A program made the position numbers and the translations under genes. Shown piece after piece: positions 1-37,121 of a stretch of 64,000 nucleotides of DNA (position 1 is its first letter; every line of letters begins with the position of its first letter). The stretch comes from Escherichia phage vB_EcoM_ESCO9. Below the pieces are notes generated by a model. The model worked only from the letters and a program-made list of their open reading frames with translations. It ran no database searches and was not told where the DNA came from. The stretch lies in the sequence record OM386654.1; one strand, written 5' to 3'.

Positions 1-947
1 TGGGTTGCCGTAGCTTCTTGTCATACTATGCAACAGAGCAAGGTGAAAAATATGATGGTCGTTTCAACTTAGGCGTAGTTTCTTTAAACTTACCTATCAT
101 TGCAGCAGAGTCCCGTGAAAAGGGCATCTTATTTACTGAACTGTTGGAACAACATATGGAGATGGCGTATAAGGCACATATGCTACGTGTTAACCGTATT
201 AGACATACCAAAGCATCTCAAAACCCTACATTGTTTATGGAAGGGGCTTTAGCTCGACTAGAAGCTAATGAAGAGATTGGTAAACTATTCGAAGGTGGTT
301 ATGCCTCTATTAGTATCGGTTATGTAGGTTTAGCAGAAGCTATGGAGATTTTATACCCAGGTAACACCAATCCAAAAGCAATGGGTAAAAACATCCTTCA
401 ATATATGAAGGATATCTGTGGCACATTTAAAGAACGTTCTGGTTTAGCTTTTAGTTTGTATGGAACACCAGCAGAATCCTTGTGCTATAAATTTGCCAAA
501 GCATTAAATGATCGCTATCCTGGTTCTATTGATCGTGACTACTTGACAAACTCTTTCCATCAACCTGTGTGGATGCACACTACCCCGTTCCAAAAGTGGG
601 ATTATGAGGAAGGTTTTGCACAAATCAGTAATGGTGGGAACATAGGCTATGTAGAAACACCAAACCTTAAAAATAACTTGCAAGCACTGGAAACCCTTGT
701 AGATTATGCCTACAACAAAATTCCTTATTTTGGCGTGAACCAACCTGTAGATCAGTGTTTCAAATGTGGTTTTCATGGTGAATTTAAGGCAACAGCTAAA
801 GGCTTCGAGTGTCCAATTTGTGGCAATCATGAGGAAGAATCTATATCTGTAATCAGAAGAGTGTCAGGATACCTGTCTGCCCCTAACTCTCGCCCTTATA
901 ATAAAGGTAAAATGCAAGAGGTATTAGAAAGGGAGAAACATTTTTGA
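1..947 (+). CDS. nrdD: Anaerobic ribonucleoside-triphosphate reductase NrdD, C-terminal part (gene starts upstream of window)
   Basis: Open frame runs to window start; C-terminal Zn-ribbon CFKCGFHGEF...CPICGN and glycyl-radical loop RVSGYLSAP typical of class III RNR. Confidence 0.85.
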   Translation, partial: GCRSFLSYYATEQGEKYDGRFNLGVVSLNLPIIAAESREKGILFTELLEQHMEMAYKAHMLRVNRIRHTKASQNPTLFMEGALARLEANEEIGKLFEGGYASISIGYVGLAEAMEILYPGNTNPKAMGKNILQYMKDICGTFKERSGLAFSLYGTPAESLCYKFAKALNDRYPGSIDRDYLTNSFHQPVWMHTTPFQKWDYEEGFAQISNGGNIGYVETPNLKNNLQALETLVDYAYNKIPYFGVNQPVDQCFKCGFHGEFKATAKGFECPICGNHEEESISVIRRVSGYLSAPNSRPYNKGKMQEVLEREKHF

Positions 948-5228: not shown

Positions 5229-5435
5229 ATGGCAGGTGTTTTAGCAGTATTAGGTTGTTTTATTGTTGTGTTCTTGATTGTGTTAATCCCTAGTTGGCTA
5301 CTGCTTTTAGCATACAATTATATGATTGACATTATCGGCTTAGACTGGCATCATGTTCCTGTAACGTTTTGGAGTGTAGTCTGTGTGACGTTCATTCTTG
5401 CGGTACTCCGTGGTATCTTTCAATCTAACAAATAA
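5229..5435 (+). CDS. Small membrane protein (68 aa, 2 predicted TM helices)
   Basis: Hydrophobic stretches VLAVLGCFIVVFLIVLIPSWLLLLAY and VTFWSVVCVTFILAVL; RBS AAGGAGAAAG. Confidence 0.4.
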   Translation: MAGVLAVLGCFIVVFLIVLIPSWLLLLAYNYMIDIIGLDWHHVPVTFWSVVCVTFILAVLRGIFQSNK

Positions 5436-5775: not shown

Positions 5776-6753
5776 ATGCAACTGGGTTTCCCAATTATTG
5801 ATGTGGTTGTTTTAGTGGGTATTTTAGTGTTGTCGATTTGTATTGATTTCTTTGGCCACAGAGAAAACAAAGAAATTTCATTTAAATCTGCAATTGGTTG
5901 GTCAATTTTTTGGATTGGGGTATCATTAGCCTACTATGGTTTTGTATACTTCCAGCACGGTGCTGATTTTGCGAGCTTGTTCTTGAGTGGGTATGTGTTG
6001 GAGAAATCTCTTTCTGTAGATAACTTAGTAGTATTTGTGGCAGTATTCGCAAGTTTTGGTATTAAAAGCACACACTTGCAACACAAGATTCTACTTTGGG
6101 GTATTGCAGGTGCGATTGTCTTCCGAGGTGTGTTTGTAGCAGTAGGCACTTACTTGTTGAGTTTGGGTTGGTATGTTAATATCTTCTTCGGTGCTGTCAT
6201 CCTTTTCTGTGCGGCTAAAATGGTATTCGCTGGAGATAATGATGCAGAAGTTGATTACTCTAAACACTGGGCTACTCGCATTGTTCGTAAGCTGTTCCCT
6301 GTATCTGATCAGATGGATGGTGAGAAGTTCTTCACAATCAAAAATGGTGTTCGTGTAGCAACTCCGGCTCTGGTTTGTGTGTTTGTAATGGAAATGGTTG
6401 ACGTAATCTTTGCAGTAGACTCTGTTCCAGCAGTAATTGCAGTGACACAAGAACCTCTGCTGGTGTTCTCTTCGATGCTCTGTGCAATCTTAGGTTTACG
6501 TGCTCTGTTCTTTGTTCTTAGTGTTGCACTGAAGTATTTGGTTCATCTGGAGAAAGCAGTTATCGTAGTCCTGGTATTTGTGGGTGTAAAACTGATGTAT
6601 CATCCGTTTGCAGAAACTCTGCACGCAAAAGTGAGTTTCCTGCCAGCACACATTGATCCGACGATCAGTATGTATATTGTGTTAGGTACTCTTGGGTTGG
6701 GTGTTATTGCAAGTTTAATCTTCCCTGAAAAAGAAGACCAGACTGTTGCTTAA
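5776..6753 (+). CDS. terC: TerC-family integral membrane protein
   Basis: Multi-TM protein with duplicated TerC signature: LEKSLSVDNLVVFVAVF and EMVDVIFAVDSVPAVIAVT. Confidence 0.8.
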   Translation: MQLGFPIIDVVVLVGILVLSICIDFFGHRENKEISFKSAIGWSIFWIGVSLAYYGFVYFQHGADFASLFLSGYVLEKSLSVDNLVVFVAVFASFGIKSTHLQHKILLWGIAGAIVFRGVFVAVGTYLLSLGWYVNIFFGAVILFCAAKMVFAGDNDAEVDYSKHWATRIVRKLFPVSDQMDGEKFFTIKNGVRVATPALVCVFVMEMVDVIFAVDSVPAVIAVTQEPLLVFSSMLCAILGLRALFFVLSVALKYLVHLEKAVIVVLVFVGVKLMYHPFAETLHAKVSFLPAHIDPTISMYIVLGTLGLGVIASLIFPEKEDQTVA

Positions 6754-6760
6754 TTCATTA

Positions 6761-6782
6761 AGCCCCTTCGGGGGCTTTGTTG
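6761..6782 (+). terminator. Intrinsic terminator (AGCCCC-TTCG-GGGGCT + T-run)
   Basis: UUCG tetraloop hairpin followed by TTTGTTG just after terC-like stop. Confidence 0.5.
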
Positions 6783-6985
6783 AGGTGATCTGATGGTAGT
6801 TTTACGTGTTCTTTGGATTCTGTTTGAAAATATTTGTTTTGCTTTAGGGTTATTTTGTTTGATTTTTATCTTGACAACATACATTGATAACCATACAATT
6901 ACTATCAACAGGAACGGAGAACAGATGTATTGTTTCTCTAGGGATTTTAAAAATTGTGTTGAGACTTTAAATGAGAGGGTTACAA

Positions 6986-7576
6986 ATGAAAAACATTAAA
7001 TCTTTTATTGTTGCAGTTGTTTTAGGTAGTGCATTGCTGGTAGGTTGTGATGATTCTGAAAATGTACAAAATCAACGTTACCAACAAACACCAAATCAGA
7101 TGGTAGATGAACAATATGTAAATCAGCCTGCACCTCAAGTTGTTCAAGCAGCACCTGCACAACCTTCAACAGTTGTTGTGCAAGGAGGCGGCAGTGGTTC
7201 TTCTGGTGTAGGTGAGTTTGCTACAGGTATGCTTCTTGGTCATATGTTGAGTGGTAATAGTGGCGGTGGTGGTTATAGAGATGGTGGTAGCAGCACAACA
7301 ATTATTAATAACAACGCTGCTCCTACAACTAACAGTAAAGCATATACAACACAAAAGCATAGTTTTTATGATAAACAAGGAAATACATATACAACCACTA
7401 AACAAAACACAATTAAGCAGCAAAGTGTACAAACGTATTCACGCCCATCAACAACAAAAGTGAATAGTGATTACTCTGCTCGTAAGTCTTACTCAAGCCC
7501 TATTAGCTCTTATAGTAAGTCTTCGAAAAGTTATTCTTCGTCGAAACGTAGTTTTAGTAGCTCACGTCGTCGTTAA
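6986..7576 (+). CDS. Putative lipoprotein, Gly/Ser/Thr-rich
   Basis: Signal peptide with lipobox LLVGC; low-complexity S/T/G-rich mature region; RBS GAGAGG. Confidence 0.5.
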   Translation: MKNIKSFIVAVVLGSALLVGCDDSENVQNQRYQQTPNQMVDEQYVNQPAPQVVQAAPAQPSTVVVQGGGSGSSGVGEFATGMLLGHMLSGNSGGGGYRDGGSSTTIINNNAAPTTNSKAYTTQKHSFYDKQGNTYTTTKQNTIKQQSVQTYSRPSTTKVNSDYSARKSYSSPISSYSKSSKSYSSSKRSFSSSRRR

Positions 7577-7611
7577 TAATTTAATACAGATTAAATAAGA
7601 AGGAGAAACAG

Positions 7612-8463
7612 ATGAAACTAGAAGTTGGTAAAGTATATCGCCTGGAAGGTTGGATCTTTAATCAAGAAATCCTTGAGAAGAATAAAGATGGTTTTGAGTT
7701 TGTTGGTACTACCAAGGAAAGTATGCACGATGACGAATACTGTAAATTCGTTGGTAAAAATACAGGTCAAGAACAATTTTGCTTTAAGAGCGCAATCGGG
7801 GACTATGCTTCTGTAATGCCAACACCAGAAAAGACTTCGAAGCAATATACTGTCTTTGGTGTAAAACTTGAAGAACTTGTAGAACACCCACGTTTTGAAG
7901 AGTTCAAGGTTGCTGCAATGCGCAAGCATTCTGAAATTAAAATACATAATTTGTTTGATTTAGAAGATCGGTTTGATATCTTTATGTATGATCGCAGGGA
8001 AAAGCATTTTGATGCAACGACTTCAAAATTTGCTGCAACAGAGGATATTAAAATCCTTGATGTTGATACCTTTCTTGAGAGTGTATCGTTTGTATTCATT
8101 CCTAAATACAAAAAACGTAGTGATCATAAACGTGTGAAAGGAACTCCTCGTAAGAAACGTACTGTAAACAAAGCAACTTTGCACTTCACTTCTGGTGATA
8201 AATATACTCTCAAAGGGTTTGAAAGTGTTTTATATGATGCTGGAACAGGTAATATCAAGTTTATCATTAAGGCAACCTACAAAGGTACGGTATTGCACGA
8301 AGAGGCTGTTACACTACCTGTATTCGATATCTCTCGTGTTGAGGTACGGGGTGTTAAAGAGTCCTTCGATCTGGATTTCTTAACTACTAATGCTACTGGT
8401 TATGTTAATCTGGAAGCAGATGGAGCATTTATTACTACAAATTATTTAGATATGTTTGTTTAA
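7612..8463 (+). CDS. Hypothetical protein (283 aa)
   Basis: Long ORF with RBS AAGGAGAAA; no motif recognised. Confidence 0.45.
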   Translation: MKLEVGKVYRLEGWIFNQEILEKNKDGFEFVGTTKESMHDDEYCKFVGKNTGQEQFCFKSAIGDYASVMPTPEKTSKQYTVFGVKLEELVEHPRFEEFKVAAMRKHSEIKIHNLFDLEDRFDIFMYDRREKHFDATTSKFAATEDIKILDVDTFLESVSFVFIPKYKKRSDHKRVKGTPRKKRTVNKATLHFTSGDKYTLKGFESVLYDAGTGNIKFIIKATYKGTVLHEEAVTLPVFDISRVEVRGVKESFDLDFLTTNATGYVNLEADGAFITTNYLDMFV

Positions 8464-8531
8464 TACTTAATTTGTGTTATGATGGTGGTACAGAGGTATC
8501 ACCATCTACTAAAGAATATGGAGGAAATTGA

Positions 8532-9635
8532 ATGTCCAGTCCTTTTATCAGTGCCGTAAAAAGCAAACCGTCTGAAATGAGTGTATTCACGGCAACAACA
8601 GAAAAAAGTAAGTCTTTGTTTGCTCCAAGTGCTATGGATGCAAGCCCTGTATATGCCCCTGCTGTTGCACGACCTGTACAAATGCTGCCTCCAATGTCTC
8701 GTGAAGAGATTGAACAGGTTGGTGCTGATGCAGGACTTACTCTTCGTAACCTTAATGCTGAAGTGCTTAAACACCAGCGTTCATCTCAGGGAGATGAAAT
8801 GAGTGAACGTTTAACTGCACTTATTAAGCAAGCAAAGCAACTTGATCCTAACTCTATTAAACAATCTAAAGGCTTAGGTAAACTAGTTAAGAAAGTATTA
8901 GGTATGAAAGAAGATTTGTTTGGTGAATTTGACACCATCAATAATCGTATTGAAGGTTTGGTAAAGACACTACAAACAGACTTGAAAAAAGAAGAAGATT
9001 CTTTACGATATCTGCAACGTTTAGAAGAGGCTATTGCAAAATATGCTCTTAGCTTAAACAGGGATATAGAGCTTCTAACAGCTACTTATGAAAAAGAAGA
9101 AGTTCGCCTTAATACACTACCTGAAAATGAAGTAGAAGAGCGTCAACGTACTCGTGACACTATGGATCTGCTTGAAATTCGTATTGCAGATCTGAAAGCC
9201 TTACGTTTACTGTGCGTTCAGATGGGGCCACGTGTACAAAGTATGCAGAAAGTATCTGCAAGTTTGATGCGATCAGCCCGTAATATTGTGAATAATGTTA
9301 TTCCTGCTTACTCTGCAAACTTTTCTATGTATATTGAAAGTCTACGCCAGAAGAAAGCAGCCGATACGCAGAACAATGTACTGAATGAATTTAATGCTGC
9401 TATTGCAATGGGTAGTGATCTGGCTGCACAAAACCAGATTGAAGCTACACAACTTGCTAATCGTCAAGTATTGGATATTGAAACATTGCGTCGTGATCAA
9501 GAAAACTTAGTTAAAATGTTGGAAGAAACTAACCGAATCAACACTGAAGCCCGTGCTGCTCGTATTGATTACATTCAAGAAGTGCAATCTCTTGAAGATG
9601 GTATGATTCAAACTGTTAAACGTGGTCTACTTTAA
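8532..9635 (+). CDS. Coiled-coil protein, candidate TelA/KlaA-like toxic-anion-resistance family member
   Basis: 367-aa predominantly helical/coiled-coil protein; assignment rests mainly on size, composition and position between terC-like and terD-like genes. Confidence 0.35.
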   Translation: MSSPFISAVKSKPSEMSVFTATTEKSKSLFAPSAMDASPVYAPAVARPVQMLPPMSREEIEQVGADAGLTLRNLNAEVLKHQRSSQGDEMSERLTALIKQAKQLDPNSIKQSKGLGKLVKKVLGMKEDLFGEFDTINNRIEGLVKTLQTDLKKEEDSLRYLQRLEEAIAKYALSLNRDIELLTATYEKEEVRLNTLPENEVEERQRTRDTMDLLEIRIADLKALRLLCVQMGPRVQSMQKVSASLMRSARNIVNNVIPAYSANFSMYIESLRQKKAADTQNNVLNEFNAAIAMGSDLAAQNQIEATQLANRQVLDIETLRRDQENLVKMLEETNRINTEARAARIDYIQEVQSLEDGMIQTVKRGLL

Positions 9636-9648
9636 GGAGAAATATATT

Positions 9649-9855
9649 ATGAATATTAAAATTTACAAACTGTCTGGTTCTATGATTGCTGTTCAGTATG
9701 ACAATGAAGATCGTTATGTTCTCCTCCAGGATGCTTGGTTAGATGATCCTAATGTATTCACTGTCCTGCGAGAACTACGTTCTGTCTATACCTATTCTTC
9801 TAAAGATGGTTTTGACAATTCAACGATGGAATTGGTAAAAGAGGAGAATGTGTAA
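9649..9855 (+). CDS. Hypothetical protein (68 aa)
   Basis: ATG with RBS AAGGAGAAA. Confidence 0.4.
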   Translation: MNIKIYKLSGSMIAVQYDNEDRYVLLQDAWLDDPNVFTVLRELRSVYTYSSKDGFDNSTMELVKEENV

Positions 9856-10055
9856 TGAGTAAAGATATTCACTTAACTCGTGAAGAATTGCAAACCATTA
9901 TGGAAGATGCTTTCATTGATGGTTGGAAACAAGGTCAAGAATCAGATTGGTATGATGCCGAAGATTTTTTGTATTATCATATGACTGCACCTGTAGACGA
10001 GCAAACACACTCTGAAACAACTTTGGCTTTAATTGATCTTAAGGCTGGTGTATAA
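9855..10055 (+). CDS. Hypothetical protein (66 aa)
   Basis: ATG with RBS GAGGAG, start overlaps previous stop. Confidence 0.4.
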   Translation: MSKDIHLTREELQTIMEDAFIDGWKQGQESDWYDAEDFLYYHMTAPVDEQTHSETTLALIDLKAGV

Positions 10056-10618
10056 TGGGGTGTTTTAGTTTCTTGTGCAAAGAGTCTGGTAATGCTGCTC
10101 TTTCTACCTCTTTCGATGGCTCTCCTTGCTACCTATTTCTTTTGAAAGGTGGTAAGGTTGTCGAAGAGATGTATGGGAATTATGATAGCTATGGTAGTGT
10201 TTTCTCTAACGAAGAAGATAAACATGGCAATCGTAAAAGATTTAAGTGGTCTATGCCTTGGGAAGAAGTTTGTAATTTGATGTTCTCTTCCGATCTTGGA
10301 GATGGGATTGCTCTAGTATTAGAAGAGCACTTTACAGGCGAGATCCCAACAGAAAGATCTGAAGAAGACCCTAACCAGGGTTGGGGTGATGGGGAAGAAG
10401 ATCCAGATTGCTTCTTCAGCACTGAAAATAATAAATTTAAACGTGTTGACAATCCTTACCACAAAGTGCATAATACTTGCATTGAGACAGAAGAAGACTC
10501 AAAGCTAGAAATTGAAGATGATTTAGTTGTAACTATCTCTTTAAACGAGTTGCAAAAAATCACTAGAGAGGCTTTCTATTTAGGTTGGAAAGTAGGTAAA
10601 GGAGGAGATAGTGCTTAA
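10055..10618 (+). CDS. Hypothetical acidic protein (187 aa)
   Basis: ORF in coupled array; Asp/Glu-rich. Confidence 0.4.
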   Translation: MGCFSFLCKESGNAALSTSFDGSPCYLFLLKGGKVVEEMYGNYDSYGSVFSNEEDKHGNRKRFKWSMPWEEVCNLMFSSDLGDGIALVLEEHFTGEIPTERSEEDPNQGWGDGEEDPDCFFSTENNKFKRVDNPYHKVHNTCIETEEDSKLEIEDDLVVTISLNELQKITREAFYLGWKVGKGGDSA

Positions 10619-10880
10619 ATTTAATATCAAAGACGACAAATCAGATGAACCTAAATGTTTTGGAGAACTTGACGTAGGTGATACATTTGTATATTATGTT
10701 GCCTATCAAGATTCTGGTTTAGATACATTCAGAAATTTAGTGTTTATTAAGGTTAATACAAACCAAGCAATGTGTCTGAACGGTTCGCAAAGAGGTCAAC
10801 TTAGCTGTATTTCGTATGATACAGAAATGGTAGAAGTGGATTTAGAAGTTACTAACATTACACTCAGAAAGGAGAAATAA
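10611..10880 (+). CDS. Hypothetical protein (89 aa)
   Basis: GTG start with RBS AGGAGGAG. Confidence 0.4.
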   Translation: MLKFNIKDDKSDEPKCFGELDVGDTFVYYVAYQDSGLDTFRNLVFIKVNTNQAMCLNGSQRGQLSCISYDTEMVEVDLEVTNITLRKEK

Positions 10881-10881
10881 T

Positions 10882-11676
10882 ATGTCCAATAAAATCAGTC
10901 TTAAAAAACGTCAAGAAACTCTTACCGTATCTCTGCGTAAGAAAAAGATTAACGATGTTGTTCTTCGTGTCGGTAGTGCCTTAGATATTTCGGGTAGTAT
11001 GTGTGAGCTGTATCGTGATGGCACTGTTAGTGATTTTGTAGGTAAACTGCTGCCGTTTGGTATGAAGTTTGATGATAATGCACAGATTGACATGTGGGCT
11101 TTCAATAGTTCTTCTTTTGAACTGCCTCCTGCAACGGCTGATGTATATGATGATTATGTCGGCTCTTGTATGTCTAATGTTTGCATCAATGGTGGTACAG
11201 CTTATGCCCCAGTAATGCAAGAGATCTATGATACATACTTCGGTAGTGTACCTATGAAAAATATTACACGCGAAGTCGTTGAGTATGAAGAAGTTCCGGC
11301 TAAGGGTTTCCTTGCTAAACTAACTGGTAAAAAAGAACGTGTAGAAGTTACACGTACTGTTGTAGAACAGGTTGTAGATACTGATGCACAAGTTGATCGT
11401 ACTCCTGCAATGATTTTCTTCCAAACTGACGGGGAGAACATGGATACTTCAGCAGTACGTAGTTTGCTGAACAAACACCGCAACACTCCTGTTTACTGGT
11501 TTATGGTTGGTGTAGGCAATGCAAACTTTAAATTCCTGAAAGACTTGGCAAAAGAATACGATAATGTTGATTTTATCGGTATTGCAGATTTGTCCTTGTC
11601 TGACGAAGAACTTTACGATAAACTGCTATCCGAAGAGTTTGGTGAGTGGGTTAAAAAATTTGGAGCAAAAGCGTAA
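10882..11676 (+). CDS. vWA-domain protein (TerY-like) with TerD-like N-terminal segment
   Basis: MIDAS motifs LDISGSM, GGTAYAP and FFQTDGENMD; N-terminus MSNKISLKKRQETLTVSL resembles TerD N-terminus. Confidence 0.55.
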   Translation: MSNKISLKKRQETLTVSLRKKKINDVVLRVGSALDISGSMCELYRDGTVSDFVGKLLPFGMKFDDNAQIDMWAFNSSSFELPPATADVYDDYVGSCMSNVCINGGTAYAPVMQEIYDTYFGSVPMKNITREVVEYEEVPAKGFLAKLTGKKERVEVTRTVVEQVVDTDAQVDRTPAMIFFQTDGENMDTSAVRSLLNKHRNTPVYWFMVGVGNANFKFLKDLAKEYDNVDFIGIADLSLSDEELYDKLLSEEFGEWVKKFGAKA

Positions 11677-11683
11677 AAAACGC

Positions 11684-11711
11684 TTGACTTTGTAGAAAAG
11701 ATTAGTAAAAT
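11684..11711 (+). promoter_or_regulatory. Sigma70-like promoter candidate (TTGACT-16-TAAAAT) upstream of terD
   Basis: Consensus-like hexamers, 16-nt spacer, about 40 nt upstream of terD start. Confidence 0.4.
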
Positions 11712-11748
11712 AGACAACGTAAATTAACAACAAAGGAGATAATAAATT

Positions 11749-12345
11749 ATGACTCAGAAAATTTCCCTGAAAAAAGGTTCTAGCGAAAAAGTTTCTCTGA
11801 AAAAGATTGCACCAGCACTGAAACGCATTCGTCTGGAATTCTCTTGGAAATCTAACGAAAAACTGGATCTGGATGTTAGTGCTCTGATTTGCCGACACAA
11901 TGCATCTGGTCTGCCGGAACTGTTGTCTCCTCGCCACCTGGTGTGCTACGCGCAGAAATTTGATCCTGAACGTTCTACTTTTGCAGGTGAAGATGTTCGT
12001 GATGGTGTAGGACAGATGGAGCAGATTGATGTTACACTGGATAATATCTCTGCTGAAGCACAGGAAATTGCATTCGTAATTACTATTGATGACGAAACGG
12101 GTAAGAAACGCCTTGGTCACGCTACCGAAGGTTTCCTTAAAATCTTCGATGATGAACGTAATGTTGAACTGCTGGATTTTGACTTCTTGGCTCCAGAACT
12201 TGCAGGTAATACCATTTGCCACGTTGCCTCCCTGGTGCGGGAAGATAGCGAATGGAAACTGAAAGCATATGGTGTAGGTAAAGCTGGACTTGACATTTAT
12301 GATGTAGTTAAAGCGTTTGGCGCTGGCGACGATTGGTTCGAGTAA
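11749..12345 (+). CDS. terD: TerD-family protein
   Basis: ISLKKG...KVSLKK, LDLDVSALIC, FVITIDD, EWKLKAYGVG align in order with the TerD family pattern as recalled from E. coli TerD. Confidence 0.85.
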   Translation: MTQKISLKKGSSEKVSLKKIAPALKRIRLEFSWKSNEKLDLDVSALICRHNASGLPELLSPRHLVCYAQKFDPERSTFAGEDVRDGVGQMEQIDVTLDNISAEAQEIAFVITIDDETGKKRLGHATEGFLKIFDDERNVELLDFDFLAPELAGNTICHVASLVREDSEWKLKAYGVGKAGLDIYDVVKAFGAGDDWFE

Positions 12346-13010: not shown

Positions 13011-13029
13011 GAGGGGGATAATCCCCCTC
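13011..13029 (+). other. Stem-loop GAGGGGGA-TAA-TCCCCCTC (no U-tract)
   Basis: Perfect 8-bp inverted repeat after the 12398-13000 gene. Confidence 0.35.
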
Positions 13030-13032
13030 AAC

Positions 13033-13061
13033 TTGCAAAACAGCCTCTTCTGTGTTACAAT
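13033..13061 (+). promoter_or_regulatory. Sigma70-like promoter candidate (TTGCAA-17-TACAAT)
   Basis: Hexamers with 17-nt spacer upstream of cell wall hydrolase gene. Confidence 0.35.
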
Positions 13062-13092
13062 AAAAGTTCGTTTAACAAAATAGGAGGCAAGT

Positions 13093-13602
13093 TTGTCAAT
13101 AAAAACCTTTGTCGCAATTGCGTTACTATCCTTAACTGCTTTTACATTTACACCTGTCGTGGCGCAAGCCGAAGCTGCAAACGTAAAAACTGCTAAAGTA
13201 GTTCACAAGTGTACAAAGCGTGATAGTAAAGAAAATCTATTAGCTTGTGCAATCTATGCAGAAAGTCGTAATCAAGGAAAGCGCGGTATGTCTGCTGTTG
13301 GTAATGTAGTATTAAATAGGGCTAGAGATTCATATTTCCCTGATACTATAAAAGAAGTTTTGTTTCAAAAAGGACAATTCTCTTACACAAAGACATTCAA
13401 CGTTATGGAACGTGATAAGTGGAAGGAAGCTAAGGCTATAGCAGAACGTCTGCTTTATCTCGATACGCATTTTCCAGAATTACGAATTGCATTAGATATT
13501 ACAAAAGGAGCATTATACTTTAAAAAATCTACAATAAGAGCACACTGGGAAAAAGATATGGTTCTAGTGTACCGCTACAAAGAACATCAATTCTATCGCT
13601 AA
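13093..13602 (+). CDS. Secreted cell-wall hydrolase, SleB/Hydrolase_2-like
   Basis: N-terminal signal peptide (…FTPVVAQAEAANV); motif CAIYAESRNQG...GNVVLNRA...FSYTK typical of SleB-type cell wall hydrolases; TTG start with RBS AGGAGG. Confidence 0.6.
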   Translation: MSIKTFVAIALLSLTAFTFTPVVAQAEAANVKTAKVVHKCTKRDSKENLLACAIYAESRNQGKRGMSAVGNVVLNRARDSYFPDTIKEVLFQKGQFSYTKTFNVMERDKWKEAKAIAERLLYLDTHFPELRIALDITKGALYFKKSTIRAHWEKDMVLVYRYKEHQFYR

Positions 13603-14350: not shown

Positions 14351-14914
14351 ATGATATTTCACATAACTCCCTATCTTTCTGGAGATATTGGAAAAGGTAT
14401 CAATGACACAATAAGTGTCTTACCAGAAGATAGTTGGATTTGCCTAAGAGACATTGATACAATGTTTCTTCTTCCAGAACAACCTGCTTGGCTGGAATCA
14501 ATTGTCCGTTCAAATCCTGATTTTGATGTTCTTGGTGCATCTTGTAACAGATTGGGATCAACATATCAATTATTTAATAATGAAAGAAGTGAAGATCCGA
14601 ATATATTACACCACATTGAGATTGCAAAAAGAGCACATCTAGAATGGGGAAACTCAATAGAGGAAGTACCTACAGATGCTATCTTAGCAGGATTCTTTCT
14701 TCTCTTTCGTAAGAGTCTGTGGAATGAAATTCCTTTTGAGGAAAGATCAATACAGTTTGATATAATTTTCTCTAAAGCATTGCACGCTAACAATAAAAGG
14801 CTAGGTTTACTACGTGGGTTATATTTATTTCACACATACCGTTTAGGTAATGATGATCCTAGAAAAGCTGTTTCACACCTTTTACATTGTCAAGACATGA
14901 ATAAAATTATTTAA
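14351..14914 (+). CDS. Hypothetical protein, possibly glycosyltransferase-related
   Basis: 187-aa ORF with RBS GGAGGGAG directly upstream of three GT-like genes; no firm motif. Confidence 0.35.
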   Translation: MIFHITPYLSGDIGKGINDTISVLPEDSWICLRDIDTMFLLPEQPAWLESIVRSNPDFDVLGASCNRLGSTYQLFNNERSEDPNILHHIEIAKRAHLEWGNSIEEVPTDAILAGFFLLFRKSLWNEIPFEERSIQFDIIFSKALHANNKRLGLLRGLYLFHTYRLGNDDPRKAVSHLLHCQDMNKII

Positions 14915-14923
14915 GGAGTTATT

Positions 14924-15610
14924 TTGGAAAATACAAAAATTGGTGTTGGTGTTATTACTGTAGGTAAGCGTCCTCTTAAAGATTATCTTGTGACTGATCC
15001 TAGTGCTACTTTTGTTGTACAGTATGATCGGGAACGAAAAGGTGTTGCATATGCTCGTAATGAACTGATGAAAAAGTTTTATGATGAAGGATATGATTAC
15101 TGGTTTATTTTTGATGATGATTGCTATCCTGTTGTTCAAGGTTGGGAAACATATTTTGTAAAACAGGCGAAGGAAAATGGTTGGGATTTCTTTGGTATGC
15201 CTGAATACTTTAAAGATAAAGTAAAAGGTATTGAAGGGGAAGTGGTTATTTGGGAGCTAGGAATGTGCCAGTTTGGTATGTATTCCCGTGCAGTTATTGA
15301 GAAAGCTGGCTATTTCCGCTCATACACCCACGGCTATGGGTATGAAGATGCAGAGTGGATTCATCGCGTCCCACTGGCAGGTTTGAACCGAGGTATTCAA
15401 GGCGTACCATGTCCTATTCGAATTATGGCGTTTATCCATCCTGATGATGTATTTGGAGACAATCCTTTACCTTTTGCGAATCTGTCAAAAGAAGAGAAAG
15501 AACAGGGGATTGGTGTAAACTGGGAACAATATAAACAATCCCTGGAGGATCTTCGCAATGGTAAAACTTTTATCTCTTATGAGGAGGCTCAAAAATATGG
15601 TAAATCCTAA
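14924..15610 (+). CDS. Putative glycosyltransferase (GT-A-like, DxD-type)
   Basis: Acidic motif FIFDDDCYP resembling DxD nucleotide-sugar-binding motif; TTG start with RBS AAGGAG. Confidence 0.4.
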   Translation: MENTKIGVGVITVGKRPLKDYLVTDPSATFVVQYDRERKGVAYARNELMKKFYDEGYDYWFIFDDDCYPVVQGWETYFVKQAKENGWDFFGMPEYFKDKVKGIEGEVVIWELGMCQFGMYSRAVIEKAGYFRSYTHGYGYEDAEWIHRVPLAGLNRGIQGVPCPIRIMAFIHPDDVFGDNPLPFANLSKEEKEQGIGVNWEQYKQSLEDLRNGKTFISYEEAQKYGKS

Positions 15611-16571
15611 TACTCCTGTACTTAAGTGTGATAATAAGTTAGGCAGTGGTTGTGATTACCATCGTATTGTAATGCCATTTGCTGGAAATACGTTTAAACC
15701 TAAGAAAGACGTTTTAGTTTTTAATAGAGTGTATTCTCGTGGATCAGACGAAGTTAAACGCCTGAAGGCACAAGGTGTTAAGATTATTGTTGATTTAGAT
15801 GATTTTTATTCGCTTAATCCTGAACATTATATGGCTGGCGTATTTACTAATCACTCAAAGACTATTGTAGAGATGATTAAGTTAGCAGATGTGGTTACTG
15901 TAACAACAGAATACCTAGCTTACAAAATTCGTCATTTAAATCGTAATGTTGTCGTTATTAGAAACGCACTACCTTACGACGAAGGTCAATTTACTTTGAC
16001 AAAAGACCGTTATTCTGACACGCCTATTATTTGGGCGGGAGGAGCAAGCCATGAACCTGATTTATCTCTTGTAGCTAATACATTTGATGATACGCTATTG
16101 ACAATTGCAGGGTATGAAGTGTATCCTTCTGCACCTGTTGGAAATAATAGTCAGTATCTAACTACTGCGGAGTGGGTTAAAGTAAAACGTAAAATTCCAA
16201 ATGCACAGTATAAACCAGCTATTAAAAATTTAGGTGAGTATATGTCTGTGTATGACGGTCACAGTATTGCAATTGCTCCTCTGGTAGATAATGACTTCAA
16301 CAACTGTAAAAGCAATTTGAAGATTTTGGAAGCAGGTGCAAAGGGTCTTCCTATTATCTGTTCTCCTGTGCTGCCGTACTTCAATCCGGTAGATGCAAAG
16401 GCTGTTATCTATGCAGACTCTAAAGCATCTTGGCATTATAAAGTTGTCAAGCTAATGAGGAACCCTAGATACACAGAAGATCGTGGTATGATGCTTGCAG
16501 AACACGTTCGTCTTAATTATAATCTTGCAGATGCTAATGAACTGCGTCGTCAAGTTATTGAAAGTCTTTAA
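15597..16571 (+). CDS. Putative GT-B fold glycosyltransferase (paralog 1)
   Basis: C-terminal motif KSNLKILEAGAKGLPIICSP resembles the GT-B E-x7-E/LEAxAxGxP sugar-donor motif; RBS GAGGAGG. Confidence 0.5.
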   Translation: MVNPNTPVLKCDNKLGSGCDYHRIVMPFAGNTFKPKKDVLVFNRVYSRGSDEVKRLKAQGVKIIVDLDDFYSLNPEHYMAGVFTNHSKTIVEMIKLADVVTVTTEYLAYKIRHLNRNVVVIRNALPYDEGQFTLTKDRYSDTPIIWAGGASHEPDLSLVANTFDDTLLTIAGYEVYPSAPVGNNSQYLTTAEWVKVKRKIPNAQYKPAIKNLGEYMSVYDGHSIAIAPLVDNDFNNCKSNLKILEAGAKGLPIICSPVLPYFNPVDAKAVIYADSKASWHYKVVKLMRNPRYTEDRGMMLAEHVRLNYNLADANELRRQVIESL

Positions 16572-16582
16572 TAAGGAGCTAT

Positions 16583-17527
16583 ATGCCTAATATTATTCTT
16601 GACACACGCGGAAATGAAAAGTATAGTGTATGTGATTTTCATAGAATCATTTTGCCATATAAACGCAAACTGACCATTAATCCTAAGCATAATATTTTTG
16701 TGTTCAATGGAGTACCAACACGTGGAAAGCCAGGTTTCCTGGCTCTTAAACAACTTGGGTTTAAATTGGTAATGGATCTGGATGATTCTTTAATTATTCC
16801 TGAAGGGCATATGCTTGAAGGATTATTTGAAAATCAAATCCGAGATGACCTAAAATGGTTCCTTGAAAGAAGTGATCTTGTAACTACAACAACTCCGGCA
16901 TTAAAGGTTGAATTAAGCCAATACAATGATAATGTACATATTGTGCCTAACGGACTACCTTTTGATGAAGGACAGTTTGTTCTTACTAAAGATCGTTATT
17001 CTAAAAGTCCACTGGTTTGGGCGGGAAGTGAAACACATAAACATGATTTAGCAATTCTTCCTGATTTTGGTAAAGATTTAACTTTATGTGGATTTCGTAG
17101 AGATCACGAAGAGTTAAGTAGTGCTCAATGGTTGCAAATTAAAGAAAATATTCAACCAGATTGTGTTTATGAAGGTATTCGTCCTTATGAGTGTTATATG
17201 GAAGCATACGATGGTCATCAAATCTCCATAGCTCCATTAGTAAATAATCATTTTAATAATGCCAAAAGTAATTTAAAAATTCTTGAAGCTGGTGCTAAAG
17301 GTTTGCCACTCGTTTGTTCGCCACGAGAGAACTATTATACTGAAGAATTTAAAGATCTAATCTTCTTTGCTGATTCAGTTAAAGAGTGGAAAGATATTGT
17401 AGAATACTTAATCGAATCCCCTGATGTTTGTATTGAGAAAGGATTGGCTCTTGCTAAGTATGTAAGAGATAACTACAATATTGATGATTTAAATGAAACC
17501 CGCAGACTGCTTATCGAGGATTTATAA
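16583..17527 (+). CDS. Putative GT-B fold glycosyltransferase (paralog 2)
   Basis: Clear paralog of 15597-16571 (shared FVFNGV/DLDD, LTKDRYS, DGHxISIAPLVNN.FNN.KSNLKILEAGAKGLP blocks); RBS AAGGAG. Confidence 0.5.
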   Translation: MPNIILDTRGNEKYSVCDFHRIILPYKRKLTINPKHNIFVFNGVPTRGKPGFLALKQLGFKLVMDLDDSLIIPEGHMLEGLFENQIRDDLKWFLERSDLVTTTTPALKVELSQYNDNVHIVPNGLPFDEGQFVLTKDRYSKSPLVWAGSETHKHDLAILPDFGKDLTLCGFRRDHEELSSAQWLQIKENIQPDCVYEGIRPYECYMEAYDGHQISIAPLVNNHFNNAKSNLKILEAGAKGLPLVCSPRENYYTEEFKDLIFFADSVKEWKDIVEYLIESPDVCIEKGLALAKYVRDNYNIDDLNETRRLLIEDL

Positions 17528-19987: not shown

Positions 19988-19991
19988 CAAG

Positions 19992-20010
19992 AAGGGGCGA
20001 AAGCCCCTTT
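19992..20010 (+). terminator. Stem-loop AAGGGGC-GAAA-GCCCCTT
   Basis: GNRA-loop hairpin between genes; weak T-run. Confidence 0.4.
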
Positions 20011-20077
20011 ACAAAACAATTAATTTGTGGTACAGTATTAACAAATTAAGACTTTAGAAATATTTTAAGGAGGGAGA

Positions 20078-32848: not shown

Positions 32849-33189
32849 TAATTTTTGTCCTTACTTTGTGTGCGCTTCGTAATCTCCTCTAACATTAATT
32901 GAACAGGAGCATTTTTTAAATCCATTATTTTTTCAATCTTCTGTTCTAAGGCAGTGTTATTTGCCATTAATGTAGAGTTGATCTGGTTAAGCATTTGAGC
33001 AAGTTCTGCTTTGGTAGCATAAGTGGATTCAACAAACACCAACTTCTTTTCTAGTTCGCGGTATTTGTCTTCCATTTTATCCAAATCACTTGCCATATCA
33101 TCTATCTTCTGTTTGAAGACCACCCAGATTACGCCAATAAGAGGGATAATCGCCTCTTTAGCGATATCCCATACTTCTGTTAGCTCCAT
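32848..33189 (-). CDS. Hypothetical protein with one TM helix and coiled coil (113 aa)
   Basis: IIPLIGVIWVVF hydrophobic helix then charged coiled-coil. Confidence 0.4.
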   Translation of the reverse strand: MELTEVWDIAKEAIIPLIGVIWVVFKQKIDDMASDLDKMEDKYRELEKKLVFVESTYATKAELAQMLNQINSTLMANNTALEQKIEKIMDLKNAPVQLMLEEITKRTQSKDKN

Positions 33190-35388: not shown

Positions 35389-36876
35389 TTAGACTCCGTA
35401 CTCGTAGGAAATATTATCAAGGTCAAAGGATGGTACAACATTGTACGCTGGAGTGATATCTCCCTCATTATATTTACTGTCATCCTCAGTATTAAGTTTA
35501 ACATAAACACGGAGAGAAGTCAAGCGTCCGAACGCAAGTGCAGAATAAATTACACCTTTTATCTGATCGTTAGTTACTGTTGACCCTAGCTCAAAATAAG
35601 CCTGTAAGTTTGCAAGAGCAGAAACAATATTTTCCCTTTCTGTTGTACTTAGCACACTACCATTGCCAGTTTGATACACCAGTTTAAGTGAATATTCAGC
35701 ATTGTCACCAGGAGAAAAACGAATTACTTCTTGACCGCCATCTTCTGTTACGATAGTAATTGCTGTTGTACCATAGGTTAAGGTGTTAATAGGCTTAGTA
35801 TTATAAATAACCTGTGCAACTTCTTCTGCTGTACCACCATACACAATAGTCTGGAATGTCATAGCTGGAGCATGTTCCTGATCATGTAATGTAGGGTTAT
35901 CATAAATCTTAACCTTTGTCACACCATCTGTCAGTAGCAGGGCTTTAACAATAGCAGCACGAGTAGCAGCATTAGCTTCATCCATATTATCATTGAAACG
36001 AGAACGGAATTCTGCATCTGTTTCAACATCTGTACCTGGAGAGAATGGATAGAAGTTACCTGTATCTAAAAAGCCTGTAAACGTTGAAGAAATACCTGTG
36101 ATACTTTCTGTACCTACTGGATTATAACCAACGTCTGAACACGTAACTGGAATTTCACTCCATTTTGTACCAATTGCAATAGATGCGTAAAATTTCACTG
36201 GTGTTACTAGACCTATTGGGTTAACATTATCTTCTGGATTATAACCCATATAAACATTACTAGCATCATTCCATACTAAAGCACGATCTGTTGTTGATAC
36301 GTTAGCTTTAATGAAATTCGTGAGATCTAAAATAAAGTTTGTATTGCTAGGACTTAATGTTTTACTGTTAAGACCACCATCAATAGCACTTTGAATGTAG
36401 AAAGTAATAGAAGTTTCACCAGAAGCTGTTGCGTTTGCTTTAGAAATGGTGTATGCTCCAATCTTAGCATTCAACATTGTTGGTGCACTGACATAATATG
36501 TCAAATCGTTATCGGCATTAAAATAAACATCTGTGCTTAGTTCATAAGTCCAAGCTGCCTTATTGTTAGATTTAACATAAGCATAACCACTACCAGCAGA
36601 AGCAGCTTTACGATAAAAACCTCTTTTAGAGAAGATTTCATCAAGGTAAATACCTTCTGCACCATCTAAGGTTTGGGTATTGTAAACACCTTGCATACCT
36701 TCCCAAAGGGTGTAATCTGTATATGCAATAATACGAAACAGTTGACCAAAGACAGTATCTTCAGATGTAGCTGTATCTGCACCGAAAGTGTTTTTCAATG
36801 CTGTCATATAATTATTTAAAATATCATCAAACGTTGGAATTACAAAACCAGCATCTGTTAAACCATAATCTGCCAT
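35389..36876 (-). CDS. Baseplate wedge protein (gpJ-like), tentative
   Basis: 495 aa; size and position in baseplate cluster. Confidence 0.4.
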   Translation of the reverse strand: MADYGLTDAGFVIPTFDDILNNYMTALKNTFGADTATSEDTVFGQLFRIIAYTDYTLWEGMQGVYNTQTLDGAEGIYLDEIFSKRGFYRKAASAGSGYAYVKSNNKAAWTYELSTDVYFNADNDLTYYVSAPTMLNAKIGAYTISKANATASGETSITFYIQSAIDGGLNSKTLSPSNTNFILDLTNFIKANVSTTDRALVWNDASNVYMGYNPEDNVNPIGLVTPVKFYASIAIGTKWSEIPVTCSDVGYNPVGTESITGISSTFTGFLDTGNFYPFSPGTDVETDAEFRSRFNDNMDEANAATRAAIVKALLLTDGVTKVKIYDNPTLHDQEHAPAMTFQTIVYGGTAEEVAQVIYNTKPINTLTYGTTAITIVTEDGGQEVIRFSPGDNAEYSLKLVYQTGNGSVLSTTERENIVSALANLQAYFELGSTVTNDQIKGVIYSALAFGRLTSLRVYVKLNTEDDSKYNEGDITPAYNVVPSFDLDNISYEYGV

Positions 36877-37121
36877 TAGTTATCCTCCTTATCAGGGGCA
36901 GGTGATCTGCCCCAACGTAAATCTATTAAATTCTTCATTAGTCTGGATGGTGTGATCATAAAAACAAAAGCCCAGCCCATCCATTCAGGAATTTCTTTAT
37001 CAATTCCCAAATAAATAAACATACTGGACATAACAATCATACCAATAGCATTCCAAACTTTAGTAGAACTGACTTTATTATCAGGATATGTACAGAACAT
37101 ACCTATTAAAAATTTTCTCAT
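36876..37121 (-). CDS. Small membrane protein with two TM helices (holin-like topology)
   Basis: VWNAIGMIVMSSMFIYLGI and WMGWAFVFMITP hydrophobic segments; charged C-terminus. Confidence 0.35.
   Translation of the reverse strand: MRKFLIGMFCTYPDNKVSSTKVWNAIGMIVMSSMFIYLGIDKEIPEWMGWAFVFMITPSRLMKNLIDLRWGRSPAPDKEDN

Follow-up and report, generated by a model that had tools for sequence, protein, structure and literature searches.

Whether the secreted cell-wall hydrolase encoded at 13093-13602 in Escherichia phage vB_EcoM_ESCO9 is the enzyme that lyses the host, or an enzyme with another task in the cell wall, is the question raised by this locus. The window analyzed here is a stretch of 64,000 nucleotides of the phage (OM386654.1); it belongs to Justusliebigvirus (phi92-like) and shares 99.9% identity with phage VEcB. 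The gene, hereafter the SleB gene, is set in a replication/metabolism module on the plus strand. Its family carries the label endolysin in both RefSeq and PHROG, and the orthologues are annotated as "endolysin/cell wall hydrolase".

Several families of large, virulent phages of enterobacteria keep a Sec-secreted SleB beside interchangeable canonical endolysins, and this retention is notable for a gene that was dispensable in the sole transposon screen covering it. An answer would tell whether the exported muralytic enzymes of Gram-negative phages act beyond lysis, and whether "endolysin", as assigned automatically through PHROG 938, is a misleading label for the gene in such genomes. The SleB gene and the dispersed layout around it are already known: more than 50 near-identical genomes annotate the gene, and earlier descriptions of Stephanstirmvirinae, Vequintavirinae, and T5-like phages include the arrangement of two lytic enzymes without a cassette.

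The SleB gene and its upstream signals

The ORF at 13093-13602 is real, with a TTG start preceded by AGGAGG (Table 1), and this weak start codon is conserved across two genera. The GC-rich hairpin upstream has no T-run and is therefore not a canonical intrinsic terminator; it is kept in the Phapecoctavirus Schickermooser with altered loop and stem bases. A comparable hairpin-plus-promoter layout is found ahead of the DNA polymerase gene at 20078. The promoter candidate matches the consensus at 9 of 12 positions and has the TG, and its -35 and TGn -10 elements are conserved in the sister genus, where the surrounding sequence has diverged.

The type of promoter was considered as a clue to timing and rejected. 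Since the late structural genes are also preceded by sigma-70-like sites, no early or late expression can be deduced for the SleB gene, and the T4-type late motif TATAAATA was not enriched (7 found against 6.7 expected). Nor does the "early region", in which the gene had been placed by an earlier note on this DNA, tell much about function, as the holin and endolysin of T5 are also located in its early region (PMC3326045).

Table 1. Coordinates in the window of the SleB gene, its signals, and the genes discussed with it. TMD, transmembrane domain.
Feature	Position	Strand	Details
GC-rich hairpin GAGGGGG-ATAAT-CCCCCTC	13011..13029	+	Between the upstream gene and the SleB gene
Sigma-70-like promoter candidate TTGCAA-N17-TACAAT	13033..13061	+	Upstream TG (extended -10)
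Shine-Dalgarno AGGAGG	13082..13087	+	5 nt 5' of the TTG start; kept in the sister genus
Secreted SleB/CwlJ-family (Hydrolase_2) cell-wall hydrolase CDS	13093..13602	+	169 aa; VEcB gp190 / phi92 gp170
Predicted Sec-type signal peptide	13093..13170	+	Residues 1-26 (MSIKTFVAIALLSLTAFTFTPVVAQA, next residue E); hydropathy, homologue alignment
Putative catalytic Glu57, codon GAA	13261..13263	+	Motif Y-A-E-S; alignment
Hydrolase_2 (PF07486) domain	13273..13596	+	Residues 61-168
Two-TMD protein	5229..5435	+	68 aa; PHROG 16065; beside TerC
Membrane protein in tail-fibre module	36876..37121	-	81 aa; PHROG 1322; one or two TMDs
o-Spanin	61061..61390	-	109 aa; lipoprotein signal MRKHLLALCLVLALMMTG, next residue C; lipobox MMTG-C19
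i-Spanin	61296..61727	-	143 aa; N-terminal TMD (residues 15-37), then a long, largely polar periplasmic region

The product is predicted to be an exported muralytic enzyme

The protein scored 72.1 bits with PF07486, for which the Pfam cutoff is 27 (E 6.5e-20, covering positions 2-100 of the 100 in the profile), and also matched PHROG 938 "endolysin". In the AF2 model, the core had pLDDT values of 81-95, and the only significant PDB fold matches in Foldseek were the SleB catalytic domains 4FET and 4F55 (probability 1.00, TM-target 0.68-0.71). The structural core begins at about residue 36 and takes in the invariant Cys40 and Cys52, while residues 27-45 form a short linker/strand. Glu57 is invariant among 20 homologues, is conserved in T5, rV5, phiTE, PaP1, and Bas54, and lines up with the Glu in the Y-G-E-S motif of the B. 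cereus and B. anthracis SleB proteins. We take the Glu of the SleB Y-x-E-S/A-R motif to be the catalytic residue, hence the putative role given to Glu57.

Bacillus SleB, a spore cortex lytic transglycosylase (4F55, 4FET), shares this motif and the catalytic fold, whereas the identity is only ~23-24%, and the phage protein has no YpeB partner. The N-terminal PG-binding domain of Bacillus SleB proper was not found in the 169-aa protein, which has a single Pfam domain. Because the host is E. coli, the substrate cannot be the muramic-delta-lactam cortex. The protein is thus probably a small single-domain muralytic enzyme, predicted to be a lytic transglycosylase (the bond cleaved is presumed) with Glu57 as the catalytic acid. 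No biochemically characterized Hydrolase_2 endolysin of a Gram-negative phage was found in the literature searched.

By hydropathy and inspection, the N-terminus has the tripartite form of a Sec signal, with MSIK as the n-region, FVAIALLSLTAFTF as the h-region, a TP turn, and VVAQA before Glu as the c-region. A predicted SPase I site (by inspection only) follows A26, or A24, with Pro at -6 and A-x-A, and the small -3/-1 residues are kept in most of the 20 homologues. Orthologues have signal peptides too, including those of rV5 (…SLPVVA/A, the slash marking the site), T5 (…FSSQA/S), phiTE (…APALA/K), BIS47, and Bas54. Among the 168 closest family representatives, 141 had an export-type N-terminal signal (111 signal-peptide-like, 12 lipoprotein-like, and 18 hydrophobic). 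Judged from this architecture, the protein would be exported and cleaved. With the signal architecture, PF07486, and the SleB fold all found, the earlier description of a SleB-type hydrolase with a Sec signal was confirmed.

A T4-type lysozyme is encoded beyond the window and the lysis genes are dispersed

The SleB gene had been said to encode the only recognizable peptidoglycan hydrolase. This is true of the 64-kb window alone and is an artifact of it, because the 148-kb genome of the reference phage VEcB encodes, beyond the window, a soluble T4 e-type lysozyme (gp056, PF00959), which is 50.3% identical to T4 e and matches T4 lysozyme chains with E-values of 3e-54 to 1e-51. In VEcB coordinates, it lies ~83 kb from the SleB gene. 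Besides VEcB, ~130 Stephanstirmvirinae records carry this lysozyme. Near-identical copies were present in 55 + 79 records for the lysozyme and in 54 + 77 for the SleB gene, and a full-length T4 e homologue co-occurs with the SleB gene in essentially all Stephanstirmvirinae. Ten tail/baseplate proteins encoded in the window were also compared with Pfam in search of a concealed lysozyme, and none showed a muralytic domain.

Pairs of this kind have been reported elsewhere. A signal-peptide SleB accompanies a canonical endolysin in Phapecoctavirus (a GH24 lysozyme; PMC10793346), BME3/PVP-SE1 (PMC12210895), Septuagintavirus (PMC11370258), Certrevirus CB7 (PMC7344957), and T5-like phages (PMC11180984, PMC3326045). 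In rV5-like, Certrevirus, and T5-like phages, the canonical endolysin alongside the signal-peptide SleB homologue is a different one in each.

The spanin pair proposed at 61061-61727 is real and lies 47.5-48.1 kb from the SleB gene. It has the features of a two-component spanin, namely a TMD, a lipobox Cys, and overlapping genes. The o-spanin gene, which has a 95-nt overlap with the 3' end of the i-spanin gene, is immediately upstream of that for the large terminase; the i-spanin is annotated "Rz-like spanin" in VEcB. At the o-spanin locus, the RefSeq record of VEcB has only a truncated 60-aa "hypothetical protein".

When the window ORFs were checked for TMDs, no transmembrane protein was found adjoining the SleB gene or upstream of the spanins, where the ORFs at 61938-62794 have no TMD, in line with the earlier remark that no holin adjoins either locus. 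The two small membrane proteins named there as holin-like, at 5229-5435 and 36876-37121, do exist, but they are not the complete set: the window also encodes others at 6793-6999 and 6971-7576 (a lipoprotein), and the remainder of the genome several more. A scan of nine small membrane proteins, taken from the window and from other parts of VEcB, against PHROGs and Pfam gave no match to a holin family. The best holin candidate within the window, unproven as such, is the protein at 36876-37121, whose homologues occur in 371 phage records, rV5-like phages included. Its Bas54 orthologue, bas54_0039, had insertions at 0 of 19 sites and was scored "Essential", although polarity on the fibre gene downstream, itself essential, may account for this. 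The protein at 5229-5435 resembles a class II holin in topology only and, with 131 records, is confined to Stephanstirmvirinae-like genomes. Despite its annotation as "hol-like chemotaxis", VEcB gp090 was rejected as a holin because it has no TMD.

With the SleB gene at 13.1 kb, the spanins at 61 kb, and the lysozyme outside the window, a canonical holin-endolysin-spanin cassette was not found, and the view that the lysis functions are dispersed is borne out. T4 is similar in that its e-type lysozyme, spanins (pseT.3/pseT.2), and holin (t) are scattered without a cassette; in contrast, T4 has no secreted SleB-type enzyme, and the phi92-like phage has no recognizable T-type holin.

Since the probable main lysis enzyme, the T4-type lysozyme, lies beyond the window, the SleB protein is most likely a Sec-exported accessory muralytic enzyme and not the principal endolysin, to which we assign a probability of roughly 0.55. 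For ESCO9 itself, this role is suggested by analogy with its relatives. The protein would be translated from the weak TTG start, exported by the Sec pathway, and cut after Ala26; a probable Cys40-Cys52 disulfide may stabilize it in the periplasm, where, in the infected cell, it would degrade host peptidoglycan in an accessory capacity. The principal pathway would consist of the soluble T4 e-type lysozyme, a holin, and the overlapped i-/o-spanin pair by the terminase gene, all dispersed in the way known from T4, T5, and rV5.

The orthologue is dispensable in phage Bas54

Data on essentiality were taken from the supplementary tables of the HIDEN-SEQ preprint (10.1101/2025.11.20.689424), a transposon screen of Bas54, an rV5-like phage. 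In Bas54, the SleB orthologue is bas54_0065, which shares 41% identity with the ESCO9 protein (E 1e-40), has PF07486, and retains its signal peptide, both Cys, and the Glu. In this screen, which concerns a phage of another subfamily on two laboratory hosts, bas54_0065 had insertions at 32 of 36 sites and was scored "Non-essential", whereas bas54_0202 had none at 24 sites and was scored "Essential"; the spanin genes had zero insertion reads (10.1101/2025.11.20.689424). We found bas54_0202 to be a homologue of lambda R (E 3e-56 to 1AM7). These results back the earlier suspicion that the SleB protein is not a classical endolysin. As Bas54 can dispense with SleB while its endolysin is essential, SleB at native levels cannot lyse cells alone. 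The second strain of the screen gave no host-dependent SleB phenotype (log2FC -0.88, p 0.50; 10.1101/2025.11.20.689424).

The CRISPRi-ART data on T5 carry less weight. The SleB homologue T5.083 was scored "Not Fit", but this datum is weak because the method scores known endolysins likewise, T5 lys among them; T4 e is mentioned where the CRISPRi-ART paper discusses limitations of the method. Recombinant CB7_83, the Certrevirus homologue, was toxic in E. coli (PMC7344957, as data not shown), which fits an active exported muralytic enzyme.

Alternative roles of the SleB protein

The earlier note had also considered SAR-like logic, in which an uncleaved N-terminal segment keeps the enzyme inactive and attached to the inner membrane as long as no pinholin has depolarized it. 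The segment does have 22 uncharged residues (T5-A26), 45% of them Ala, Ser, or Thr; the Pakpunavirus PaP1 homologue has an uncleavable-looking N-terminal TMD, and a Gly-rich two-TMD protein is encoded downstream in Certrevirus. However, the segment contains no Gly and lacks a Cys that could cage the enzyme through a disulfide, its core runs for 14 residues before the helix is broken at Pro21, with A-x-A following, and the orthologue cores of 12-14 residues are too short for anchoring. No pinholin-like gene adjoins the SleB gene, the flanking ORFs having no TMD and the nearest two-TMD ORF being 7.7 kb off. The E. coli OmpA signal peptide ends in …ATVAQA, and the likeness of the c-region VVAQA to it also speaks against SAR. 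A cleaved signal peptide is therefore the likelier form, and a SAR endolysin appears quite improbable. Another proposal is that the SleB protein is the principal endolysin, exported independently of a holin as is Lys44 of Oenococcus phage fOg44 and unleashed when a holin collapses the PMF, the e-type lysozyme being secondary. The "endolysin" label of RefSeq and PHROG, the signal peptide, and the toxicity of the CB7 homologue are in its favor, as is the precedent of exported endolysins, reviewed together with their PMF dependence (PMC6116005). Lys44, though, is the sole endolysin of a phage with a Gram-positive host, whereas here a cytoplasmic lysozyme coexists, with a full-length T4 e homologue in essentially all Stephanstirmvirinae; in Bas54 the SleB orthologue is non-essential and the cytoplasmic endolysin essential, and in T5 a defined holin-endolysin pair is encoded at another locus. 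We consider this proposal improbable. Least credible is the suggested part in ejection, with the protein as a virion-associated lysin for DNA entry: although the phage is a myophage, the domain is muralytic, and no other tail lysozyme domain is detectable in the baseplate proteins of the window, such a part is very unlikely because the predicted export signal is cleavable, the gene lies outside the structural module (on the opposite strand, ~13 kb away), and the orthologous phage can dispense with SleB. There is also no fusion to a structural domain.

A dedicated non-lytic function in the periplasm, in which the peptidoglycan of the infected cell would be remodeled for some end other than lysis, is a tentative possibility. 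Examples would be conditioning of the envelope against superinfecting phages or lysis from without, making room for envelope-spanning phage complexes, and countering an envelope-linked defence. It would agree with the dispensability of SleB in Bas54 beside an essential canonical endolysin, and with the presence of SleB in ~1,150 phage records of unrelated families, always outside lysis cassettes. The neighbors point the same way: the gene lies directly upstream of rIIA/rIIB in rV5, Bas53, Bas54, and Mydovirus, and in the window it stands beside a TerC/TelA/TerF/TerD envelope-stress-type cluster. The retention of the weak TTG start across two genera is a further point for it. On the other side, the strictly conserved catalytic Glu and the toxicity of expression in E. 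coli are as expected of a lytic enzyme, a second host of Bas54 gave no host-dependent phenotype, and in Certrevirus a two-TMD holin-like gene follows the SleB gene. This last arrangement also counts against the accessory reading and hints at a genuine lysis role in that genus. Near-universal conservation over several phage families argues for a real function, which is possibly dedicated and non-lytic. The signal-peptide SleB might, with some doubt, be a conserved, lab-dispensable periplasmic peptidoglycan-remodeling factor of T5-like, rV5-like, and phi92-like coliphages; if so, it may serve superinfection exclusion or resistance to lysis from without, or help only on stationary-phase or modified walls.

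Comparison with related phages

The SleB gene was compared with what related phages encode. Phi92 gp170, VEcB gp190, and the Phapecoctavirus hydrolase are 97-99% identical to the ESCO9 protein within the genus and ~75% in the sister genus. The Stephanstirmvirinae orthologues have the same synteny (TerD, SleB, small ORFs, glycosyltransferases), the same upstream hairpin and promoter, and the TTG start; nothing material differs, and the window represents another isolate.

In Vequintavirinae, rV5 ORF2 "SleB", Bas54 bas54_0065, and Certrevirus CB7_83 are 34-41% identical to the ESCO9 protein and resemble it in the signal peptide, the Cys-x11-Cys pair, the putative catalytic Glu, and size. There too, the SleB gene is in the replication module, apart from the spanins at the terminase gene. 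Its neighbors differ, being rIIA/rIIB in Vequintavirus and Mydovirus and a two-TMD protein in Certrevirus, whereas Ter genes and glycosyltransferases are found here. The partner endolysin differs as well: it is of the lambda-R type, an M15 peptidase, or another lysozyme in Vequintavirinae, and of the T4 e type here. T5 "sleb" (T5.083) likewise has a signal peptide and Hydrolase_2, with ~36% identity over the catalytic domain, and lies in the early region distant from the hol-lys pair; unlike the ESCO9 protein, it is 149 aa long, has another Cys pattern, and belongs to a siphovirus.

Sequence, fold, and expression signals of the SleB-type hydrolase

The product of the SleB gene is a conserved single-domain enzyme of the SleB fold with an intact putative catalytic Glu and a Sec-type signal, and its ORF was found exactly at the position and on the strand reported in the earlier note. 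Residues 61-168 matched PF07486 (Hydrolase_2, 'Cell Wall Hydrolase') with 72.1 bits (E 6.5e-20; gathering score 27), and the protein also matched PHROG 938 'endolysin'. The only solved structures related to it by sequence were the Bacillus SleB catalytic domains 4F55 and 4FET. Glu57 (Y-A-E-S) aligned with the motif Glu of SleB (Y-G-E-S) and, like Cys40 and Cys52, was invariant in an alignment of 20 homologues. The AlphaFold model, for which 20 homologues formed the input alignment, was confident in its core (most blocks from residue 41 onward at pLDDT 81-95, the 83-99 loop excepted), and the significant Foldseek matches to this model in the PDB were SleB catalytic domains only (probability 1.00, TM-target 0.68-0.71).

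Residues 1-26 read MSIK/FVAIALLSLTAFTF/TP/VVAQA|E, with a short basic n-region, a hydrophobic core of 14 residues, a turn at Pro -6, and small amino acids in positions -3/-1. This tripartite n/h/c layout supports, by sequence, the Sec-type signal peptide proposed earlier. The 20 homologues, at 60-98% identity, shared a conserved hydrophobic core and had a variable c-region that nearly always retained the small -3/-1 residues. Signals of a typical cleavable type end the leaders of the T5 (…FSFSSQA|SHD), rV5 (…SLPVVA|APK), phiTE (…APALA|KEN), and BIS47 (…GPVIA|EPL) orthologues, and the Bas54 orthologue has a cleavable-type signal too; the PaP1 homologue carries an N-terminal TMD in place of the signal peptide. 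A library of 1.84 billion representatives contained 6,144 relatives at E <= 0.001, and the N-termini of the closest 168 were signal-peptide-like in 111, lipoprotein-like in 12, and otherwise hydrophobic in 18. We infer that the signal peptide would be cleaved at the predicted site.

Judged from the upstream signals, the gene probably has a promoter of its own, a conserved sigma-70-like candidate behind a conserved hairpin. The pattern recurs upstream of the DNA polymerase gene, as a GC-rich hairpin without a T-run followed directly by TT(G/T)(C/A)CAAAAC… N … TG(T/G)nTACA(A/G)T; the copy before the SleB gene is kept in Phapecoctavirus with altered stem and loop bases. The promoter type cannot time expression, because late genes are also preceded by similar sigma-70-like sites and the T4 late motif was not enriched. 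Likewise, location in an 'early region' says nothing on function, because T5 hol and lys also lie within the T5 early region. The TTG start (13093-13095) is common to Justusliebigvirus and Phapecoctavirus (GTG in rV5), and its conservation may be a way of limiting how much of a potentially lethal exported enzyme is made.

Features of the window (TMD, transmembrane domain)
Feature	Position	Strand	Remarks
TerC	5776-6753	+	annotated in VEcB; about 8 TMDs
Tellurite-resistance/stress-type cluster, phage-borne	5776-12345	+	immediately upstream of SleB gene
68-aa TMD protein	6793-6999	+	within Ter cluster
Lipoprotein	6971-7576	+	within Ter cluster; lipobox LVG-C, then Asp
TelA	8532-9635	+	PF05816, E 5e-34
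vWA-TerF-like	10882-11676	+	E 7e-39
TerD	11749-12345	+	E 5e-28
Intergenic hairpin and sigma-70-like promoter candidate	13011-13061	+	conserved; upstream of SleB gene
Shine-Dalgarno AGGAGG	13082-13087	+	precedes TTG of SleB gene
SleB gene	13093-13602	+	TTG start, 169 aa
Glycosyltransferase genes	14351-17527	+	four in a run, just downstream of SleB gene
Recurrent hairpin/promoter pattern	19988-20077	+	upstream of DNA polymerase gene
113-aa protein	32848-33189	-	tail-fibre module; weak N-terminal TMD; C-terminal part largely charged, helix-prone
81-aa membrane protein	36876-37121	-	PHROG 1322; embedded in tail-fibre module
o-spanin	61061-61390	-	109 aa; starts MRKHLLALCLVLALMMTG|C (lipoprotein signal); directly upstream of large terminase gene
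i-spanin	61296-61727	-	TMD residues 15-37, then long, largely polar periplasmic region

A second lytic enzyme and distribution across phages

Identity of the window was 99.9% to VEcB, an Escherichia phage of the genus Justusliebigvirus (Stephanstirmvirinae), and 97-99% to phi92 and related phages. Since the VEcB genome measures 147.7 kb, the window amounts to under half of the phage genome. VEcB encodes a T4 e-type lysozyme outside the window, a soluble protein of 166 aa without an export signal. It matched Phage_lysozyme PF00959 and T4 lysozyme chains (E about 1e-52), with 50.3% full-length identity to T4 gene e. Copies were present at >=95% identity in 55 records and at 60-90% in 79, and the corresponding counts for the SleB gene were 54 and 77, indicating that both genes co-occur throughout the subfamily. 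The claim that the SleB enzyme is the only recognisable peptidoglycan hydrolase therefore holds within the window, where no muralytic domain was found in ten tail/baseplate proteins, but not for the phage; it is a product of the window cutting off the remaining genome.

The gene is an already known and annotated feature, labelled 'endolysin', 'cell wall hydrolase', or 'SleB' in related records (phi92 gp170, VEcB gp190). 'Two endolysins' or 'two lytic proteins', the signal peptide of the SleB-like protein, and the absence of a classic lysis cassette have been published for such phages (PMC7344957, PMC12210895, PMC10793346, PMC11180984), as has toxicity of the SleB-like protein on expression in E. 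coli (PMC7344957).

SleB homologues were found by tblastn in 1,147 phage records, and in every case examined the gene lay in the replication/early module, outside the lysis cassette. It is located in the early region >20 kb from hol-lys in T5, directly upstream of rIIA-rIIB in rV5, Bas53, Bas54, and Mydovirus BIS47, and before a 65-aa two-TMD protein in Certrevirus phiTE/CB7 (PMC7344957); Phapecoctavirus shares the TerD, SleB, glycosyltransferase order of the window. The canonical partner endolysin varies by clade: GH24 of T4 e type in Stephanstirmvirinae (PMC10793346), lambda R type in Vequintavirus (bas54_0202 versus 1AM7, E 3e-56), an M15 peptidase in T5, Septuagintavirus, and CB7, and a lysozyme in PVP-SE1/BME3. 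The T5 early region additionally carries, ~1.7 kb upstream of sleb, an M14 zinc-carboxypeptidase-family gene, ORF082 (AY587007 44324-44992), whose product is a second potential peptidoglycan/muropeptide-processing enzyme outside the lysis cassette. Several GenBank records under the name 'Campylobacter phage' (among them MG065639 A150, MG065661 C9, MG065662 A142) share genes at 98-100% identity with E. coli phi92-like/rV5-like phages and are probably mislabelled or contaminant assemblies.

Orthologue screens

The HIDEN-SEQ transposon screen covers the rV5-like Bas54 (phage MaxBurger; preprint 10.1101/2025.11.20.689424). The SleB orthologue bas54_0065 (41% full-length identity, E 1e-40) matches PF07486 and retains the signal peptide, the Cys pair, and the Glu. 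It took insertions at 32 of 36 sites ('Non-essential'), with high reads on both hosts (916 versus 499, not significant), and the cytoplasmic lambda-R-type endolysin bas54_0202 took none at 24 sites ('Essential'); no reads were recorded for either spanin (10.1101/2025.11.20.689424). Thus, at native levels, the secreted SleB enzyme is neither required for lysis nor a substitute for the canonical endolysin. The T5 homologue T5.083 was 'Not Fit' in CRISPRi-ART, to which we gave little weight because T5 lys was also 'Not Fit' and T4 e is cited among the method's limitations.

Spanins and holin candidates

The spanin pair at 61061-61727 proved real, with an i-spanin TMD and an o-spanin lipoprotein signal; the o-spanin ORF begins inside the i-spanin gene, with an overlap of 95 nt. 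In RefSeq VEcB (NC_052663.1 55715-55897), the o-spanin is mis-annotated as a truncated 60-aa 'hypothetical protein'. As the earlier note had stated, no holin adjoins the hydrolase or the spanins: ORFs neighbouring the SleB gene and those upstream of the spanins encode no TMD proteins, nor do those adjoining the e-type lysozyme gene. Both holin-like small membrane proteins named there exist, but they are not the only ones, as the 68-aa protein and the lipoprotein of the Ter cluster, and several outside the window, show.

The proposed holin search gave no match to holin families in PHROGs/Pfam for any of nine small membrane proteins; the holin was likewise unidentifiable to CPT annotators in the rV5-like phage LL12 (PMC6658697). 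The best candidate is the 81-aa protein, because 371 phage records (Stephanstirmvirinae, Vequintavirinae including rV5-like phages, and beyond) contain a conserved copy and its orthologue bas54_0039 had transposon insertions at 0 of 19 sites, for which a polar effect on an essential downstream fibre gene is another explanation. It is a candidate for either the missing holin of the supergroup or an essential tail-assembly factor. The 113-aa protein of the same module is labelled 'lipoprotein' (PHROG 15210) yet has no lipobox, and matched the Rz-like spanin PHROG 739 weakly (E 5e-4).

Role of the SleB enzyme

The most probable role is that of an accessory muralytic factor (confidence 0.55). The enzyme would be exported by Sec, cleaved by SPase I after A26 (or A24), and stabilised as a periplasmic protein with a Cys40-Cys52 disulfide; it would then cut the MurNAc-GlcNAc bond, as in SleB, and may nick the sacculus, weaken it in advance, or help finish its degradation. 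Lysis proper would fall to the soluble e-type lysozyme, a holin, and the spanins. The dispersal of lysis genes described earlier fits the separate locations of these genes, and a non-principal role fits the Bas54 data. The same data argue against the enzyme as principal exported endolysin, which we regard as unlikely.

The main rival, a dedicated non-lytic role, is possible though doubtful. An envelope-related neighbourhood, rIIA/B in rV5-like phages and the TerC/TelA/TerF/TerD cluster in the window, speaks for it, and near-universal conservation of a gene dispensable in the laboratory calls for a conditional benefit. A SAR endolysin, with the N-terminal segment as an uncleaved anchor, is quite improbable: the segment lacks Gly and has a helix-breaking Pro and an A-x-A site, hydrophobic cores in orthologues span 12-14 residues, and no pinholin adjoins the gene. 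The ejection role suggested in the earlier note runs against the evidence, since the SleB gene lies outside the structural module, and a virion lysin is very improbable indeed.

Other observations on the neighbourhood

One gene of the glycosyltransferase run (14924-15610) matched the TET-associated glycosyltransferase PF20691 below threshold (E 1.6e-4, 22 bits, cutoff 27.5), and VEcB has dTDP-rhamnose pathway genes outside the window. These genes may hint at a modification of DNA or of surface glycans. In VEcB (NC_052663.1 117814-121423, which includes window 18-947), the annotation splits the large subunit of the anaerobic ribonucleotide reductase into three pieces (gp165, gp166, gp168), with the ORF gp167 lying between them, which suggests interruption by an intron or homing element.
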